Made by a program: the position numbers and the translations under genes. The notes under the pieces were generated by a model. It saw only the letters and a program-made list of their open reading frames with translations, ran no database searches and was not told where the DNA came from. This document shows positions 14,882-64,000 of a DNA stretch of 64,000 nucleotides, piece by piece. The first letter of the stretch is position 1. The number at the start of each line of letters is the position of its first letter. Origin of the DNA: Escherichia coli (GTDB taxonomy: Bacteria; Pseudomonadota; Gammaproteobacteria; Enterobacterales; Enterobacteriaceae); assembly GCF_003334255.1 (NCBI RefSeq), contig NZ_QOWU01000018.1; one strand, 5' to 3'.

Positions 14882-15979
14882 GTGATTAAATTTCTCTCTG
14901 CATTAATTCTTCTACTGGTCACGACGGCGGCTCAGGCTGAGCGTATTCGCGATCTCACCAGTGTTCAGGGGGTAAGGCAAAACTCACTGATTGGCTATGG
15001 TCTGGTGGTGGGGCTGGATGGCACCGGTGACCAGACAACCCAGACGCCGTTTACCACACAAACGCTTAATAACATGCTCTCACAGCTGGGAATTACCGTT
15101 CCGACGGGCACCAATATGCAGCTAAAAAACGTCGCTGCGGTAATGGTGACAGCGTCACTTCCTCCGTTTGGACGTCAGGGGCAAACCATCGATGTGGTGG
15201 TTTCTTCCATGGGAAATGCCAAAAGCTTGCGTGGAGGTACGTTGTTGATGACACCGCTTAAGGGCGTTGACAGTCAGGTGTATGCGCTGGCGCAGGGCAA
15301 TATTCTGGTTGGCGGCGCAGGAGCCTCCGCTGGCGGTAGCAGTGTTCAGGTTAACCAACTGAACGGTGGACGGATCACCAATGGTGCGGTTATTGAACGT
15401 GAATTGCCCAGCCAGTTTGGCGTCGGGAATACCCTTAATTTGCAACTTAACGACGAAGATTTCAGCATGGCGCAGCAAATCGCTGACACCATCAACCGCG
15501 TGCGTGGATATGGCAGCGCCACCGCGTTAGATGCGCGGACTATTCAGGTGCGCGTACCGAGTGGCAACAGTTCCCAGGTCCGCTTCCTTGCCGATATTCA
15601 GAATATGCAGGTTAATGTCACCCCGCAGGACGCTAAAGTAGTGATTAACTCGCGCACCGGTTCGGTGGTGATGAATCGCGAAGTGACCCTCGACAGCTGC
15701 GCGGTAGCGCAGGGGAATCTCTCAGTAACAGTTAATCGTCAGGCCAATGTCAGCCAGCCAGATACACCGTTTGGTGGTGGACAGACTGTGGTTACTCCAC
15801 AAACGCAGATCGATTTACGCCAGAGCGGCGGTTCGCTGCAAAGCGTACGTTCCAGCGCCAGCCTCAATAACGTGGTGCGCGCGCTCAATGCGCTGGGCGC
15901 TACGCCGATGGATCTGATGTCCATACTGCAATCAATGCAAAGTGCGGGATGTCTGCGGGCAAAACTGGAAATCATCTGA
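14882..15979 (+). CDS. flgI: flagellar P-ring protein FlgI
   Basis: ORF-track frame trimmed by one codon to the second GTG, (M)[18 protein letters not shown] signal peptide; 365 aa. Confidence 0.93.
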
Positions 15980-16920
15980 TGATCAGCGACAGCAAACTAC
16001 TGGCAAGTGCGGCCTGGGATGCGCAATCACTCAACGAACTAAAGGCGAAAGCGGGCGAAGATCCGGCGGCAAATATCCGTCCGGTGGCCCGTCAGGTGGA
16101 AGGGATGTTCGTGCAGATGATGTTGAAAAGCATGCGCGACGCTTTACCAAAAGATGGCCTGTTCAGCAGCGAGCACACTCGCCTGTATACCAGTATGTAT
16201 GACCAGCAGATTGCCCAACAGATGACGGCGGGCAAAGGTCTGGGGCTTGCAGAGATGATGGTTAAACAGATGACGCCAGAACAACCATTGCCAGAGGAGT
16301 CCACGCCAGCAGCACCGATGAAATTCCCGCTCGAAACTGTGGTGCGTTATCAAAATCAGGCGCTTTTGCAGCTGGTGCAAAAGGCCGTGCCACGTAACTA
16401 CGATGATTCGCTGCCGGGTGACAGTAAAGCATTCCTCGCGCAACTCTCGCTGCCCGCCCAACTGGCAAGCCAGCAAAGCGGTGTGCCACATCATTTGATC
16501 CTCGCTCAGGCGGCACTGGAATCTGGTTGGGGGCAACGGCAAATCCGCCGCGAAAACGGCGAGCCGAGCTATAACCTGTTTGGTGTCAAAGCCTCTGGCA
16601 ACTGGAAAGGGCCAGTTACTGAAATCACCACGACTGAATATGAAAACGGCGAAGCGAAGAAAGTAAAAGCGAAGTTTCGCGTCTACAGCTCGTATCTGGA
16701 AGCCTTGTCGGATTACGTTGGGCTGTTAACGCGTAACCCGCGCTACGCCGCCGTGACGACCGCCGCGAGTGCGGAACAGGGGGCGCAGGCCCTACAGGAC
16801 GCGGGCTATGCCACCGATCCTCACTATGCCCGCAAACTCACCAACATGATTCAGCAGATGAAATCGATAAGCGACAAGGTGAGCAAAACCTACAGTATGA
16901 ACATTGATAATCTGTTCTGA
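15979..16920 (+). CDS. flgJ: flagellar rod assembly protein / peptidoglycan hydrolase FlgJ
   Basis: ORF-track frame trimmed to [14 protein letters not shown]; 313 aa; start overlaps the flgI stop. Confidence 0.94.
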   Translation: MISDSKLLASAAWDAQSLNELKAKAGEDPAANIRPVARQVEGMFVQMMLKSMRDALPKDGLFSSEHTRLYTSMYDQQIAQQMTAGKGLGLAEMMVKQMTPEQPLPEESTPAAPMKFPLETVVRYQNQALLQLVQKAVPRNYDDSLPGDSKAFLAQLSLPAQLASQQSGVPHHLILAQAALESGWGQRQIRRENGEPSYNLFGVKASGNWKGPVTEITTTEYENGEAKKVKAKFRVYSSYLEALSDYVGLLTRNPRYAAVTTAASAEQGAQALQDAGYATDPHYARKLTNMIQQMKSISDKVSKTYSMNIDNLF

Positions 16921-58967: not shown

Positions 58968-59056
58968 TGCACTACGCTTATCAGGCCTGCAAGGGGACGC
59001 AATTAATTGAATTTGCGGGTTTTGTGGGCCGGATAAGGCGTTCGCGCCGCAACCGG
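58962..59056. repeat. REP/BIME element between cobB and ycfZ
   Basis: GCCTGATGCACTACGCTTATCAGGCCTGC and GGCCGGATAAGGCGTTCGCGCCGCAACCGGC units. Confidence 0.8.
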
Positions 59057-59085
59057 CATAATACACACGCATTTTACTGTCTCTT

Positions 59086-59874
59086 TTACCGTTTACTCGT
59101 CAATAACAACACGGCAATAAACGTACAGACACCAATCAGCCCTGCCCAGAGTGGCGATATTCTGGTAATCGCAAAGCTATTATCGATATACAGGCATAAA
59201 GCCTGATAGCCCATATTGGCAATAGTCATCGCTACTGCAAATTTTAACGCATAAATAAAACGAGTCGTGTAGTAAAAGACCGAGGAAAATAAGACAAACG
59301 TTGCAGCCCAGGCGATAAAACCTAATGTGTTGGTGCTGCCGGGGGGATCATTTTCATGCTGTTTTCCTGGATGCGGATAATATGTTAGTGGAGGCGTCGG
59401 TTGTTTTAATATCTGTGCTTGTAGAACAGCCAATGCATTATTGATTCCCTGATACCAGAGGCCAGCATGTAAATAAGCCAGTGTGTGATTTTCTATCAGA
59501 AGGCCGAGATGTTTATCGTCCAGACCGCTTTCAACCTGGCCGTTGGTGATCATAATTAACCGTGGTTCGCGGGTAGTAAATAGTAACAGAACACTTCCTT
59601 TTACATCACTCAATGAAGATGACGCATGCGCCAGCATCGCTTTACCATTTTGTCTGAGACTGGCTTCATTATTAATGTCGGGTAAAACCACAATAAACGG
59701 TGCAATTCCCGTTTGTTGGCGAAAAAGCTCGGCTTTATGCGCGATCTCTTCAGCATCTGGTACAGTACCGGTAACGTCCGTAAAAAGTGTCTTCATTATT
59801 GGAATTAATGGCTTGCTGGCTGCTGTCAGAGGCAGGAGTATCAGTAAACTGAGCAGTATAATGAATTTTTTCAT
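59086..59874 (-). CDS. ycfZ: inner-membrane protein YcfZ
   Basis: 262-aa ORF with signal/TM segments matching YcfZ. Confidence 0.88.
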
Positions 59875-60332
59875 GGGCGGGACTTCCGTTTCCTGCGTGA
59901 TTTTTTAGAGGAGGGCATACTTATTAATAAACCGACGGCGATAAAAATAACGCCCATAATGCCGATAAACCCCCATTTAAAAAAATTAACCCACGGGTTA
60001 TTTATCTCAGCCTTTTCAGGATGCCCGGGAGAATAATAAACATTAACTTTATCGCCTTCGCTGTCTTCATAAAAATCGCTGCCGATACTCGAATTGAAAA
60101 TTAGCGTGTAATCTGGCGTCGGTCGAAAGGCAACGACGGGATACCACGAACCATCTTTACCCGTGCGATGAGAATGACTGGAGTGCCAGACGGTATCAAC
60201 AATGACGCCTTCGGTATGAATCGCGTCTTTGCTATAGGTGAACTGGTTATAAAAGACAACAACAGAAATGAGGATCAGTACCAGACCGATACCGAGGAAT
60301 ATACGAAAGAAAACTTTACTGTCCTGACTCAT
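59871..60332 (-). CDS. ymfA: inner-membrane protein YmfA
   Basis: ORF-track frame trimmed to [16 protein letters not shown]; 153 aa; overlaps the ycfZ start. Confidence 0.88.
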
Positions 60333-60389: not shown

Positions 60390-61436
60390 TTAACGTCCTG
60401 CTTTCAGCTTCTGATAATACTCTTCATAAATGCTGCTGGCTGCGCCAACGTCATTCTGCCATTCGCCATTTTTAATGGTTTCAGCATCCGGGTAGAGCGT
60501 TTTATCGTTCGCCACTTCCGGGCTTAACAGCTTACGCGCCGCAAGGTTTGGCGTTGGATAACCGATAGTTTCGGCAACCTGTTTTGCCACATCCGGGCGC
60601 AGCAGGAAGTTGATCAATTTCAGCGCGCCTTCTTTGTTTTTGGCATTTGCCGGGATCGCCAGGCTGTCCATCCAGAAAATGCCGCCTTCTTTCGGCCATA
60701 CCACGTCAATTGGCGTACCCGCCTGGCGTGCAACGAAAGCAGAACCGTTCCAGATCATGCCGAGGTTAACTTCGCCTTCCATGTACGGGTTAGCCGGGTT
60801 ATCGGAGTTAAAGGCTGCCACGTTTGGCATCAGTTTTTTCAGCTCGTTATATGCAGCTTCAATCTCTTTCGGATCGGTGGTGTTACCGGAGTAGCCCAGC
60901 TTACGCAGCGCCATCTGGAACACTTCACGGGCATCGTCGGTCAACAGCAGGCTGCCTTTGTACTCAGGCTTCCACAGATCGGCCCAGCTGGTGACAGATT
61001 TCGGATCCACCGCATCACCGTTAACACCAATCGCCGTCGCACCCCAGATATACGGAATGGAGTAATCGTTATTCGGGTCAAACGGCTTATTGAGCATGTC
61101 TGGATCGAGATTGCTGAAGTTCGTTAACTTCGACTTGTCGATCTTCTGGATCATCCCTTCTTTACGCATTTTATCGACGTAATAGGTTGAAGGAACCACC
61201 AGGTCATAGGCACCGTCTTTGTACGTTTTCAGCTTGGCGTACATGGTTTCGTTCGACTCGTAAGTCGAATAGATAACCTTAATACCGGTTTCTTTGGTGA
61301 ATTGTTCAAGCAGTCCTGGCGGCACGTACTCGGTCCAGTTGTAGAAATACAGCGTGTTGTTGTCATCGGCGTGAGCGGCGCTCATGCCCAGTGCCAGAGC
61401 ACCCGCCGCGAGCAGGTGGCGTGACCATTTTTTCAT
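60390..61436 (-). CDS. potD: spermidine/putrescine ABC transporter periplasmic binding protein
   Basis: 348-aa ORF with signal peptide matching PotD. Confidence 0.97.
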   Translation of the reverse strand: MKKWSRHLLAAGALALGMSAAHADDNNTLYFYNWTEYVPPGLLEQFTKETGIKVIYSTYESNETMYAKLKTYKDGAYDLVVPSTYYVDKMRKEGMIQKIDKSKLTNFSNLDPDMLNKPFDPNNDYSIPYIWGATAIGVNGDAVDPKSVTSWADLWKPEYKGSLLLTDDAREVFQMALRKLGYSGNTTDPKEIEAAYNELKKLMPNVAAFNSDNPANPYMEGEVNLGMIWNGSAFVARQAGTPIDVVWPKEGGIFWMDSLAIPANAKNKEGALKLINFLLRPDVAKQVAETIGYPTPNLAARKLLSPEVANDKTLYPDAETIKNGEWQNDVGAASSIYEEYYQKLKAGR

Positions 61437-62227
61437 TTAACGTCCCCTGTGTTACCTTTCGTTTTATCACGAGCAATAAGCTGGCTGGCAATAACCATCA
61501 CCAGCGACAGCACCAGTAATATGGTTGCCAGCGCGTTAACTTCCGGCGATACGCCGACTTTGACCATCGAATAAATTTTTAACGGCAGAATTTCATAGCT
61601 TGGTCCGGTGACGAACGAAGAAACTACTACATCGTCCATCGACAGGGTAAAGCTTAACACCCAGCCCGCCGCCACCGCTGGCATTGCCAGTGGCAGAATG
61701 ATTTTTCGCAGAATGGTAAATTCGCTGGCACCGAGATCTTTCGCCGCTTCCAGCATTCGCACGTCAAAACCTTTCAGGCGCGAATACACTGTCACCACCA
61801 CAAATGGCAGGCAGAAGGTGATATGCGAGAACAGCAGCGACCAGAAGCCAAGCTGAATACCCAGCAGCATAAACAGCACCAGCAGCGAAATCGCCATCAC
61901 GATATCTGGTGACATCATCACCACAAACAGCATTCCACTAACGAACGGCTTACCACGAAAGCGATAACGGTACAGCGCAACTGCCGTCAGTGAACCGATA
62001 AGCGTAGCAAATGTCGCCGAAAACACCGCCATTGTTAGTGAATGCTGCGCTGCCTGTAACAGGCTGTCGTTGTTCATCAGCAGGCTATACCATTTGGTGG
62101 TAAAACCCTGCCAGTTGATGCCAAAGCGCGAGCTGTTAAAGGAGTTCACAATCAAAATAATGATTGGGATATACAGGTACGCGTAGATAGCGGTCATAAA
62201 ACCGCCGCGAAGCAGTCGACCGATCAT
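61433..62227 (-). CDS. potC: spermidine/putrescine ABC transporter permease
   Basis: 264-aa ORF matching PotC. Confidence 0.96.
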   Translation of the reverse strand: MIGRLLRGGFMTAIYAYLYIPIIILIVNSFNSSRFGINWQGFTTKWYSLLMNNDSLLQAAQHSLTMAVFSATFATLIGSLTAVALYRYRFRGKPFVSGMLFVVMMSPDIVMAISLLVLFMLLGIQLGFWSLLFSHITFCLPFVVVTVYSRLKGFDVRMLEAAKDLGASEFTILRKIILPLAMPAVAAGWVLSFTLSMDDVVVSSFVTGPSYEILPLKIYSMVKVGVSPEVNALATILLVLSLVMVIASQLIARDKTKGNTGDVK

Positions 62228-62250
62228 TCGAGTTCCACCTTTTTATTCAT
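62224..62250 (-). other. putative prophage attachment-site core retaining the last codons of potB
   Basis: Minus-strand frame ends …SRLMNKKVELE-TGA with the stop overlapping the potC ATG; this resembles the PotB C-terminus as I recall it, while the sequence upstream is not PotB-like. Core boundaries are estimated. Confidence 0.4.
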
Positions 62251-62393
62251 AAGGCGGGACACTTTCAGGATTTTGAATTTATTCAATTTTTCCCTTTCTC
62301 CAAAATCTCTCCAAAACGTTTCCCCAAAACTAGGCCACGCATTTTACAACACTTTTTTCCTGAGATGGTGACGGATATTCCATATGGTGTTTG

Positions 62394-63512
62394 TCAAATA
62401 ACCAACTTAACCCATTCCTGACCTCGAGTATCGTTATAGCGATCGGTGGTTGCCTGGACTTTATGTCCTAGTAATGTTTTTGTATCGATACCCTGTGCAC
62501 GGTACAGCCGTTCTGATAGAGAGCGTTGTTCATGAAATGTTGGCGGAGTTTTTCCTGCTGGTGGAATTATCCCAGCCAGATCCCGTGCTTTGGCAAAGTA
62601 GTCGCTCAGGTTGTCTTTACTCATCGGCTTCGGTTGTTTCTGGTGCCGACTATGGATTAGATATGGACTTAATATTCTGTCTCGGCACCCATCAATAACT
62701 TCTTTTAACGTTATCCCAATGGCATCACAGCGTAGTGTAAGCGGTAACGCCAGACGCATTCCGGTTTTTCCCTGGGTGATATGCAAGTGTTCGTTCCACA
62801 CATCTGAAAAACGCATGTGGCAAATGTCATCACGGCGCTGACCAGTAACAATCGCAAGAAGCATTGCGTTACGGATAAAGTGTTTTTCAGGCGTTGCATT
62901 GTAAATTTTTTGCCAGTCTTCCATGGTGAGCCTGGCTCTGGTTACTTTAGGGATCGGTTTACGGGTAGCCTCCGGAGGATTCCATCCAGGAGGAACTTCC
63001 CCTGCATGCTGTGCTTCTTTATAAATATCAACCCATAATCCACGATTTACTCTCGCTGTGCTGACCATGTCTTTATCCAGCCACTCATCCAGTATTAATG
63101 CAAAGTCTCTTACTTCCAGTTCTTTCAATGGGTGGTTTCCCAGACGGGAAACCAGGTATGCAGCCATTCGAGTTTTTTCTTTGTGAGTTGTAGCTGCAAT
63201 ATCTCCATTTTTCAGTCGCGTGTCCTGTATTTTCAGATATCGATCAACCCATGCCTTTAATCTGATACCCCGACGTTTTGTTGCTGACGGACTTTCATCA
63301 ATTTTGCGCATGAAATATTCAGCTTCTGCTGCAGCTATTCGCTGATTGGCTGTGGAAGCGATTTTTTCTGCCTTACCTTTGTCTGTTCCGAGTCCGTGAA
63401 ATTTTCCAGTCACAGGATTTTTATACTGGTAGTAAACTCTGCCAGTTCTGCGATCAAACTTTTCGTAAAGACCGGCTACGTCAGTGCTGTTTTTTCGTGG
63501 CCTCGGTGACAT
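62394..63512 (-). CDS. int: phage integrase, tyrosine recombinase (lambda Int family)
   Basis: 372-aa ORF; C-terminus TFHEQRSLSERLYRAQ…LLGHK…TDRYNDTRGQEWVKLVI parallels lambda Int (HxxR, H, Y catalytic residues); N-terminal arm-binding-like domain. Confidence 0.9.
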   Translation of the reverse strand: MSPRPRKNSTDVAGLYEKFDRRTGRVYYQYKNPVTGKFHGLGTDKGKAEKIASTANQRIAAAEAEYFMRKIDESPSATKRRGIRLKAWVDRYLKIQDTRLKNGDIAATTHKEKTRMAAYLVSRLGNHPLKELEVRDFALILDEWLDKDMVSTARVNRGLWVDIYKEAQHAGEVPPGWNPPEATRKPIPKVTRARLTMEDWQKIYNATPEKHFIRNAMLLAIVTGQRRDDICHMRFSDVWNEHLHITQGKTGMRLALPLTLRCDAIGITLKEVIDGCRDRILSPYLIHSRHQKQPKPMSKDNLSDYFAKARDLAGIIPPAGKTPPTFHEQRSLSERLYRAQGIDTKTLLGHKVQATTDRYNDTRGQEWVKLVI

Positions 63513-63750
63513 GAGTTAAAATCTCCTTCAGTGCATCATCATCGCCAGTATGAATTTCCGGCGCAATTCCCGTTTCACCAGGCCCAACAAATACTGCTCG
63601 GCGATCTATCAGCCAACGCCCACGAATTTTTTGTGGCCTTGGAACGATGTATCCTAGTTTTCCGTATTTCACCAGGGTAGTGTTTGTTATTGGGAGACTG
63701 AACCGTTTTGGTTTCCACTCGTCGAGCGTTATCAGGTACTGTTCGCTCAT
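63481..63750 (-). CDS. xis: excisionase (Xis-like)
   Basis: MSEQYLITLDEWKPKRF… resembles the lambda Xis N-terminus (MYLTLQEWNARQRRPR); overlaps the int start by 32 bp as in lambda. Start may instead be 63759 (MIAMSEQ…). Confidence 0.75.
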   Translation of the reverse strand: MSEQYLITLDEWKPKRFSLPITNTTLVKYGKLGYIVPRPQKIRGRWLIDRRAVFVGPGETGIAPEIHTGDDDALKEILTHVTEATKKQH

Positions 63751-63811
63751 GGCTATCACTCCGGAACGCGCCAGTTGCAGAATATCAACGACAACTGGCG
63801 ACGGTTGAACA

Positions 63812-64000
63812 TTAAAAATCAGCCTGACTCGGGATCAGTTTTTGCCAGATAACTGAAACGTATTTTGCCTGGTAACGGGCGTCATCAAGTGCATTATGGC
63901 GCTCACCTTCGAATGGAATAGCCGTTCTGGCATCGAAGTCTATGGCTTTCCCCAGCTCAACGATTGTGCGTACATCGCGATCGTTGTAGTAACGCCACGG
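63812..64000 (-). CDS. phage DnaQ-like (DEDDh) 3'-5' exonuclease, C-terminal 62 codons only
   Basis: Minus-strand frame ends …AIPFEGERHNALDDARYQAKYVSVIWQKLIPSQADF-stop; H-x-A-L-x-D-A motif matches exonuclease motif III of the DnaQ superfamily. Confidence 0.6.
   Translation of the reverse strand, partial: PWRYYNDRDVRTIVELGKAIDFDARTAIPFEGERHNALDDARYQAKYVSVIWQKLIPSQADF

Follow-up and report, generated by a model that had tools for sequence, protein, structure and literature searches.

The segment 62228..63512 of the window (the whole 64,000-nt stretch of E. coli DNA analyzed here) is the int-attL end of a known family of prophages that integrate at the potB/potC boundary. It is an ordinary integrase end, and we consider it probable that in uninduced lysogens potC and potD are transcribed autonomously of the integrase gene. 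The first-pass annotation of this DNA had proposed that potCD expression relies on int transcription and follows the state of the prophage. For uninduced lysogens this is contradicted by public RNA-seq, array and Cappable-seq data from EDL933, in which potC is independent of int RNA.

The integrase end of a prophage adjoins potC

All the genes discussed here lie on the minus strand. The open reading frame at 60390..61436 is potD, encoding the periplasmic spermidine/putrescine-binding protein (NCBIfam PotD equivalog NF007048, 791 bits for a cut-off of 582), and the one at 61433..62227 is the permease gene potC (NCBIfam PotC equivalog NF007047, 485 bits for a cut-off of 326). The PotC protein (WP_000580316.1) is identical in K-12 and in all E. 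coli lysogens examined. Upstream of potC, int (62394..63512) encodes a lambda-type tyrosine integrase of 372 amino acids (PF09003 and PF00589; phrog_7244, integrase). Its start is overlapped by 32 nt by the excisionase gene xis (63481..63750), which we identified from a match to phrog_629 (E=5e-26) and from the RefSeq annotation of the near-identical G1/2. A prophage exonuclease gene (exo VIII / 3'-5' exonuclease; 63812..64000), recognized from its sequence and the G1/2 annotation, is cut by the end of the window and is present as its 3' end only.

Pfam places the N-terminal arm-type DNA-binding domain of Int at residues 1-64 (PF09003, E=7e-21) and the C-terminal catalytic domain at residues 194-363 (PF00589). 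Compared with lambda Int (1Z1B, E=4e-54), the segments TGQR, GKTG, FHEQRS, LLGH and RY line up with the lambda motifs, and the protein has the catalytic R-K-H-R-H-Y residues, with residue roles assigned by homology. The untranslated gap between int and potC is 62228..62393, or 166 nt (167 if counted from the last base of the int stop to the A of the potC ATG), and the gene positions bear out both the co-orientation and the 167-bp spacing noted earlier.

The potA and potB genes are absent from the window because it ends within the prophage. In G1/2, which is 99.986% identical to the window across 22.1 kb, potA-potB are found ~45.3 kb upstream of potC, on the far side of a complete lambdoid prophage. 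It is through G1/2 that the earlier claim of a prophage parting potAB from potCD can be upheld, and its structural premise, that potCD are cut off from potAp, is correct. The int-potC arrangement is not a chance one, as it recurs across many genomes: the same junction is present in 1,579 of 5,426 complete E. coli genomes, int and xis are carried by 1,623 of them (~30%), and 3,800 have potB joined to potC without interruption. The spermidine transporter operon is cut in two in nearly a third of sequenced E. coli, among them all O157:H7 genomes in the matches listed, ATCC 25922 and, according to the literature, CFT073.

The junction was already known as a catalogued prophage site and comes as no surprise. 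The same integrase is found at the same potB/potC position in Sakai Sp6 (at potC/potB; PMC8190617), O104:H4 prophage J (at potB/potC; PMC3486847), phi-CFT073-potB (at the potB site; PMC4632033) and EDL933 CP-933N. EDL933 shows 99% identity to the window in the stretch from potD through potC, int and xis to the exo end, with the same core and a gap of the same 166-nt length in which one base is different, and the Sakai segment comprising int, xis and the gap is 100% identical to that of EDL933. The junction of the window itself shows no difference from the Sp6/CP-933N family. Elsewhere the prophage is mosaic; the element of the G1/2 type is ~45 kb long with lambda-like head and tail genes, and CP-933N/Sp6 is ~48 kb long with different late genes. 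A scan of genome contigs for distant relatives yielded one usable locus, from Citrobacter, and a 422-nt contaminant-like contig. The Citrobacter relative has the same int (77% identical at the level of Int), a 169-nt gap and the same potC layout. Two variant E. coli lysogens, 08_3418 and 95_0274, have two opposite-strand genes between int and the P' arm, and their potC is unchanged.

The attachment site and its arms

We defined the att core by a three-way comparison of attB (K-12), attR (G1/2) and attL (window). It is a 14-bp sequence, TGAATAAAAAGGTG (TGAATAA[A/G]AAGGTG; 62236..62249, minus strand), that corresponds to the potB codons ..L-N-K-K-V and is common to attB, attL and attR, and the crossover falls within it, as in lambda-like attP/attL; its position 8 is A or G among lysogens. 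Homology to unoccupied sites begins at the core, with a BLAST break at query position 452. Int recombined this core, which sits in the final codons of potB, and at the opposite junction PotB acquires a phage-encoded C-terminus (VSELDD* in place of VELE*). On the int side, the unoccupied site is matched by just 21 bp before the potC ATG (the common core and 8 bases of host DNA), and a promoter for full-length potC mRNA must therefore use phage-derived DNA. The Shine-Dalgarno sequence of potC, AAGGTGG (62235..62241, minus strand, 7 nt before the ATG), is retained because it is sited in the core and on the host side of the junction, and potC keeps its own ribosome-binding site here. An eight-codon mini-ORF, MNKKVELE*, which ends on the potC ATG and resembles the end of potB, was judged to be a chance occurrence; its ATG is CTG in Citrobacter and it has no Shine-Dalgarno sequence.

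A free-phage attP was sought in a phage collection, where the only two matches were prophage predictions that include host potC/potD; attP (488 nt) was rebuilt from attL and attR instead. The P' arm of attL (62250..62393, minus strand; 144 nt from the int stop to the core) is phage DNA absent from unoccupied sites and makes up all of the gap outside the core and host side. It is conserved from TTGTTGTAAAAT to the core in the Citrobacter relative and in all E. coli variants, and we attribute this conservation to its recombination function. The arm contains three tandem direct repeats, (G/A)TTTTGGRGA, at 62330-62321, 62317-62308 and 62306-62297 on the minus strand, which are putative arm-type Int-binding sites P'1-3 and are conserved in Citrobacter. 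The rebuilt attP has six matches to the repeat for ~0.19 expected (~30-fold), one of them perfect and located at +129 in the opposite arm. Arm-type sites are repeated on both arms and distinct from the core, as a lambda-like architecture requires, and would be bound by Int. An A/T-rich palindrome, TTGAATAAATTCAA (62273..62286, minus strand), separates the repeats from the core where lambda has H'; it is a possible IHF site that by eye gives only a partial match to WATCAANNNNTTR.

The palindrome also supplies the -10-like TAAATT of a weak promoter-like match, TTGGAG-16-TAAATT (62303..62276), whose -35-like TTGGAG belongs to an arm repeat. This overlap raises the question of an adaptation, in which the P' arm would contain a selected outward promoter, for example this one, that restores potCD expression and is switched off when Int binds its arm sites. 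In Citrobacter the match (TTGGAG-16-TATTTT) is unchanged in position and in its distance from potC, with T1, A2 and T6 of the -10 kept, and the phage supplies a conservative replacement of the PotB C-terminus, from which it can be argued that it is adapted to preserve the products of the operon. However, the promoter score does not exceed what chance would give in the scanned region, the role of the arm in recombination fully accounts for its conservation, and the Cappable-seq data described below, with no start site within 250 nt upstream of potC, place none at about -42 in EDL933. We regard such an adaptation as decidedly unlikely. There is a slim chance that an outward promoter in the P' arm replaces potAp for potCD in ~30% of E. 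coli and is off when Int is made, in which case uptake would drop at excision or induction.

Terminators and promoters around the gap

A pattern scan of the minus strand of 62228..62393 found no intrinsic terminator (G+C-rich hairpin plus T-run), a 221-nt RNA across the gap folded no better than shuffles (z = +0.66), and the gap had no Rfam match. The gap is rich in G and poor in C (C/G = 0.64) and so is not rut-like; neither a terminator, nor a structured RNA, nor a Rho site was found in it. The scan, the fold and Rfam agree with the earlier observation that no convincing hairpin plus T-run terminator separates int from potC. A functional terminator there had been named as a finding that would speak against read-through, and scan and fold gave none. 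As far as the sequence goes, nothing would stop an int transcript from entering potC.

In lambda, the tI/sib region is displaced from int by integration. The prophage studied here is similar: its structured RNA element, which in the free phage comes after int, sits beyond the core and is parted from int upon integration. We found a hairpin in the far arm, ~185-215 nt beyond the core (z = -2.4), which is only a candidate RNase III/terminator element. The absence of a terminator after int can be explained as in lambda, by a strong hairpin that comes after int in the circular phage and sits on the far side of the core, so that integration moves it 45 kb away.

Sigma70 promoter matches in the gap were at chance level only. 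The best position weight matrix match on the minus strand, TTGCCA-19-TGgGATAAT (62596..62566), is internal to int. It was rejected as a general potC promoter because its -10 is GGTAAT in EDL933 and Sakai (no -11 A) and GATAAC in 08_3418, and Citrobacter differs, yet EDL933 expresses potC.

Expression of potCD and int in EDL933

EDL933, rather than the strain of the window, is the source of all expression data considered here. In RNA-seq across 11 conditions, int and xis had an RPKM of 0 throughout and were among only 144 genes without any read (PMC4048457). In the same 11 conditions, the RPKM values were 5, 2, 1, 8, 2, 3, 9, 5, 19, 4 and 5 for potA; 11, 9, 5, 11, 8, 4, 2, 11, 23, 6 and 3 for potB; 18, 5, 11, 13, 14, 16, 6, 8, 19, 8 and 0 for potC, which is non-zero in 10 of the 11; and 46, 6, 2, 30, 14, 14, 18, 13, 23, 14 and 1 for potD (PMC4048457). 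RNA of potC and potD is at or above the level of potA and potB. Multi-mapping was rejected as the cause of the zero int reads, since the segment made up of int, xis and the gap occurs only once in the EDL933 genome. The extent of the old Z1764 'partial integrase' annotation is a caveat that we count against our preferred reading.

On arrays comparing the wild type with an rpoS mutant, log2 signals went from 9.0 to 7.3 for int, from 11.7 to 13.4 for potC, from 10.1 to 12.0 for potA and from 7.8 to 10.9 for potB (PMC2907692). The mutation thus lowers int 3.3-fold and raises potC 3.1-fold, potA 3.8-fold and potB 8.5-fold. The potC signal is 2.7 to 6.1 log2 units over that of int, for probe sets that are only roughly comparable. 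The two datasets disagree on int, with 0 RNA-seq reads vs an array signal of 9.0.

Cappable-seq in 8 conditions detects a transcription start site (TSS) for potA in 7 of them and one for the int gene of the neighboring prophage CP-933C, and lists none within 250 nt upstream of int or xis (PMC10469882). Within 250 nt upstream of potC, no TSS is listed as a primary 5' end in any of the 8 EDL933 conditions (PMC10469882), the listings of internal and of all start sites covering positions below 1.6 Mb; an independent potC promoter mapped in 62228..62393, the other finding named beforehand as speaking against read-through, was likewise not seen in these data. A potD TSS (EDL933 1628426; PMC10469882 Table S5) was found in 2 of the 8 conditions. 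Its equivalent in the window is 61453 on the minus strand, 17 nt upstream of the potD ATG and within the 3' end of potC, with TGATAAAAC upstream. None of these genes is listed in the supplements of PMC5597208 and PMC5331693.

Evidence against int read-through as the source of basal potCD expression in EDL933

The first-pass annotation suggested that potCD expression may depend on transcription out of the int region. Basal potCD RNA would then come from transcripts that start upstream of or at int, from a pI-like or early-left promoter, and read through the gap, and uptake would follow the prophage state. In favor of this, 166 nt separate the two co-oriented genes, this interval has neither a hairpin nor a T-run nor rut-like composition, a longer transcript would account for the lack of a listed Cappable-seq TSS within 250 nt upstream of potC, and int is detectable on arrays in stationary phase. 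Yet int and potCD do not behave as one read-through unit: int and xis lack reads in all 11 RNA-seq conditions, in 10 of which potC reaches 5-19 RPKM, and int and potC respond to the rpoS mutation in opposite directions. Moreover, no int or xis TSS is seen even though that of a neighboring prophage integrase is, and potC remains unchanged in 08_3418 and 95_0274 despite the opposite-strand genes after int. Because int and xis are unread and lack a TSS, and because the rpoS responses are opposed, we conclude that basal potCD expression in EDL933 is not int read-through, which as a general account is very improbable.

The same data could also be taken to mean that integration has a polar effect, with full-length potC mRNA scarce, most of the potC signal arising from starts internal to potC that serve potD, and PotABCD hypomorphic in ~30% of E. 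coli. This would fit the lack of a listed TSS upstream of potC, the potD-proximal TSS within potC, and the excess of potD over potC RNA in most conditions. It also fits the fact that potABCD is dispensable in the laboratory, other polyamine routes being available. Against it, RNA-seq gives potC a level equal to or above that of potB, the arrays place it 3.9 log2 units higher, and the potC Shine-Dalgarno sequence is preserved by the position of the core. PotC is also identical in all the lysogens checked, whose phylogroups are as distant as those of O157:H7, O111 and O113, which is weak evidence given the short time spans. We think such a knock-down unlikely; the view of potC as a natural hypomorph carries a weight similar to that of an Int-switched promoter in the P' arm.

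Our preferred reading remains one of transcription autonomous of int in uninduced lysogens, with potCD probably expressed at about the same low level as potAB. For potC, the likely source would be weak sigma70-type initiation in phage-derived DNA downstream of the int coding sequence, a location that we infer. For potD, the start 17 nt upstream of the gene would be an additional likely source. Transcription of xis-int could add to potCD only when the early-left operon of the prophage is derepressed, and read-through on prophage induction is plausible.

Comparison with other integrated elements

The junction shares with lambda attL an int gene that adjoins the att site, with transcription directed outward into the host DNA, and a short arm from int to the core in which three tandem arm-type sites are accompanied by an A/T-rich element. 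Lambda integrates between operons (gal/bio). The potB phage, in contrast, integrates inside an operon, and outward transcription would for this reason enter a co-oriented host gene at once. Upon induction of a lambda prophage, read-through gives escape synthesis of the gal and bio enzymes. Likewise, derepression of the early-left operon could bring transcription into the host genes beside the int end, because no terminator intervenes.

Phage 21 and e14 integrate into the end of icd and supply a replacement for the end of the gene. Rac integrates in a similar way into the end of ttcA (PMC4632033). As in these cases, the core of the potB phage lies within a coding sequence and a substitute end from the phage keeps the protein intact. 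Unlike icd and ttcA, potB is flanked on both sides by genes of its own operon, and its stop codon and the potC start share bases (ATGA); for this reason integration also breaks the transcriptional and translational coupling with potC.

To our knowledge, nobody has asked how potCD are transcribed in strains with a split operon. Lysogens may differ from K-12-type strains in their polyamine-uptake phenotypes, given that Cappable-seq maps no potC 5' end within 250 nt upstream of the gene. Public data do show that potCD are transcribed in the split operon and that their response to an rpoS mutation still parallels that of potAB.

A lambda-like attachment site splits potABCD

The int-potC arrangement is a prophage junction that has been described before, and its anatomy is textbook lambda-like. 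Sequence and six-frame ORF calls place potD (60390..61436) and potC (61433..62227) on the minus strand of the window, and their products far exceed the NCBIfam equivalog cut-offs. The ORF list also places a 372-aa integrase gene (int, 62394..63512) on this strand, preceded by an ORF that overlaps its start and encodes an excisionase (xis; phrog_629). Int carries the lambda arm-binding (PF09003) and catalytic (PF00589) domains, and its catalytic motifs line up with those of lambda integrase structures (alignment E=4e-54). The first-pass annotation was right that int is co-oriented with potC and just upstream of it, the int stop being 166 untranslated bases (62228..62393) away from the potC ATG. 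Its separation of potAB from potCD by a prophage also holds: the window ends within the prophage and potAB lie outside it, and in the near-identical strain G1/2 (99.986% identity over 22.1 kb) potA-potB are found ~45.3 kb upstream of potCD, with a complete lambdoid prophage between them. The G1/2 prophage also carries genes for an IraM/IraL-type anti-adaptor, hokD, dicB-ydfABC and three tRNAs (Arg, Arg, Ile) (G1/2 locus L001, 5322..5657, 9661..9816, 15978..16166 and 6569..6818). IraL has been described on the potB island of CFT073 (PMC4045071).

Comparison of the unoccupied K-12 site (attB), the potB-side junction of G1/2 (attR) and the int-side junction of the window (attL) yields a 14-bp core, TGAATAA[A/G]AAGGTG (62249..62236), within the last codons of potB; homology of unoccupied E. 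coli sites to the window starts at 62249. At attL, potC retains the Shine-Dalgarno sequence AAGGTGG (62241..62235), but its ATGA stop/start overlap with potB is gone, as is everything upstream except 21 bp. The other 144 nt of the gap come from the phage and are arranged like the lambda P' arm: three tandem copies of (G/A)TTTTGGRGA (62330..62297) are followed by an A/T-rich palindrome and then the core. The repeat has 6 matches in the 488-nt rebuilt phage site (attP), where ~0.19 are expected, and recurs on the other arm. A Citrobacter relative whose Int is 77% identical shares the arrangement of int, a 169-nt gap and potC, and its arm is conserved from TTGTTGTAAAAT through to the core.

At core position 8 (window 62242), O113:H21 and E28 have the host's G, but the window, EDL933, O111:H8 and 08_3418 have A. 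This fits independent integrations in which strands were exchanged to one side or the other of that base. The phage base preceding the core also creates at attL an 8-codon ORF (ATG AAT AAA AAG GTG GAA CTC GAA TGA, 62224..62250) whose end coincides with the potC start just as the potB end does. It has no Shine-Dalgarno sequence and its ATG is CTG in Citrobacter, and it is probably a chance occurrence.

Possible transcription into and out of the prophage

The earlier reading that the gap lacks a terminator on the minus strand is borne out by several analyses. A consensus scan of 62228..62393 found no terminator-like site on that strand, the gap RNA is not more strongly folded than shuffles (z = +0.66), its composition is G-rich and C-poor (C/G = 0.64), and it has no Rfam match. 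A strong hairpin lies on the far arm, ~185-215 nt past the core. Int has no terminator after it because this hairpin, which follows int in the circular phage, is displaced by integration, just as the structure that follows int in circular lambda (tI/sib) is moved off the gene. At the other end, in attR of G1/2 (L003 16563..16594), the PotB C-terminus is replaced by phage sequence (VELE* to VSELDD*, 285 to 287 aa). No terminator-like site follows potB there, so that potAB transcripts would enter the tail-fibre end of the prophage antisense.

Basal potCD expression does not follow int in EDL933

The first-pass annotation had further proposed that potCD may depend on transcription reading out of int, a claim that is contradicted for uninduced cells by three independent public datasets from EDL933. 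The junction of its prophage CP-933N is that of the window, with one base different in the gap, and the int/xis/gap segment is single-copy in the genome, which makes read mapping unambiguous. Strand-specific RNA-seq in 11 conditions (PMC4048457) gave RPKM values of 5, 2, 1, 8, 2, 3, 9, 5, 19, 4 and 5 for potA; 11, 9, 5, 11, 8, 4, 2, 11, 23, 6 and 3 for potB; 18, 5, 11, 13, 14, 16, 6, 8, 19, 8 and 0 for potC; and 46, 6, 2, 30, 14, 14, 18, 13, 23, 14 and 1 for potD. Int (Z1764) and xis (Z1765) were at 0 throughout, and belong to the 144 of 5,379 genes without a single read (PMC4048457). On Affymetrix arrays of stationary-phase cells (PMC2907692), log2 signals in the wild type and rpoS mutants were 9.0 and 7.3 for int (3.3-fold down), 11.7 and 13.4 for potC (3.1-fold up), 10.1 and 12.0 for potA (3.8-fold up) and 7.8 and 10.9 for potB (8.5-fold up). 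Cappable-seq in 8 conditions, which assigns a gene the start sites within 250 nt upstream of its start codon, lists none for int, xis or potC; it detected those of potA and of the integrase of the neighbouring prophage CP-933C in 7/8 conditions each, and one 17 nt upstream of potD in 2/8 (PMC10469882).

Taken together, potC RNA equals or exceeds potA and potB RNA, lies far above int RNA and changes in the opposite direction to int, so basal potCD expression does not come from int read-through. The datasets disagree in degree on int itself, which is reported as RpoS-dependent with a clear stationary-phase signal on the arrays (PMC2907692), whereas it has 0 reads by RNA-seq (PMC4048457) and no Cappable-seq start site. 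On induction, it is plausible that transcription of the derepressed early-left operon would read through into potCD, since nothing would stop these transcripts.

Candidate promoters for potC

Because the match to the unoccupied site extends just 21 bp upstream of the potC ATG, a promoter for full-length potC mRNA has to use phage-derived sequence. The RpoD "internal promoter" reported by Genomic SELEX at the potA-potB boundary (K-12 locus L002 ~2170; PMC3946193) is upstream of the att site and thus cannot serve potC in lysogens. A consensus scan found no sigma70-like site in 61900..64000, and matches within the gap were at chance level only. One of them, TTGGAG-16-TAAATT, keeps its position in the Citrobacter relative, but the sequence there is already under constraint from recombination. 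The match with the highest score is an extended -10 inside int; EDL933 and Sakai have it destroyed, so it cannot account for the EDL933 data. In the ~30% of E. coli concerned, the phage-derived sequence may supply potC with a weak promoter by chance, with an adapted one, or with almost none, which would make such lysogens hypomorphs.

Prevalence, variants and prior record

The int-potC junction occurs in 1,579 of 5,426 complete E. coli genomes, int+xis in 1,623 and an intact potB-potC junction in 3,800; essentially all split operons are thus due to this integrase family. All O157:H7 genomes among the best matches listed are lysogens, including EDL933 and Sakai, as are ATCC 25922 and, at potB, CFT073 (PMC4632033). 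The site has been catalogued as Sp6 (potC/potB; PMC8190617), prophage 5 (potC; PMC10925052), prophage J (potB/potC; PMC3486847) and phi-CFT073-potB (PMC4632033, PMC4045071). Our literature text searches found no paper on the effect of the prophage on potCD expression.

Lysogens 08_3418 and 95_0274 carry two opposite-strand genes inserted after the int stop, ahead of the P' arm, and their potC is unaltered, a further argument against int-potC coupling being necessary. The insert (L009 597..1500 in 08_3418) encodes a DUF2335 protein and a hypothetical protein, and extends the int-potC distance to ~1 kb.

Beyond potD, a ymfA-ycfZ segment (58999..60288) lies between cobB and potD in the window, G1/2 and K-12; EDL933 and Sakai do not have it, and potD directly follows cobB. 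Two entries of the phage collection, ON470612.1 and ON470619.1, annotate host potC/potD as phage genes; they are prophage predictions with host flanks rather than genomes of free phages. The representative of Int's 90% protein cluster is named "exonuclease", with many exonuclease fragments among the members, and the cluster appears to be chained via fused or partial ORFs. Finally, a 422-nt Pseudomonas khazarica contig (NZ_SBHZ01000050.1, L012; coverage 0.83) carries a stretch 100% identical to Int residues 42-181 and looks like contamination.
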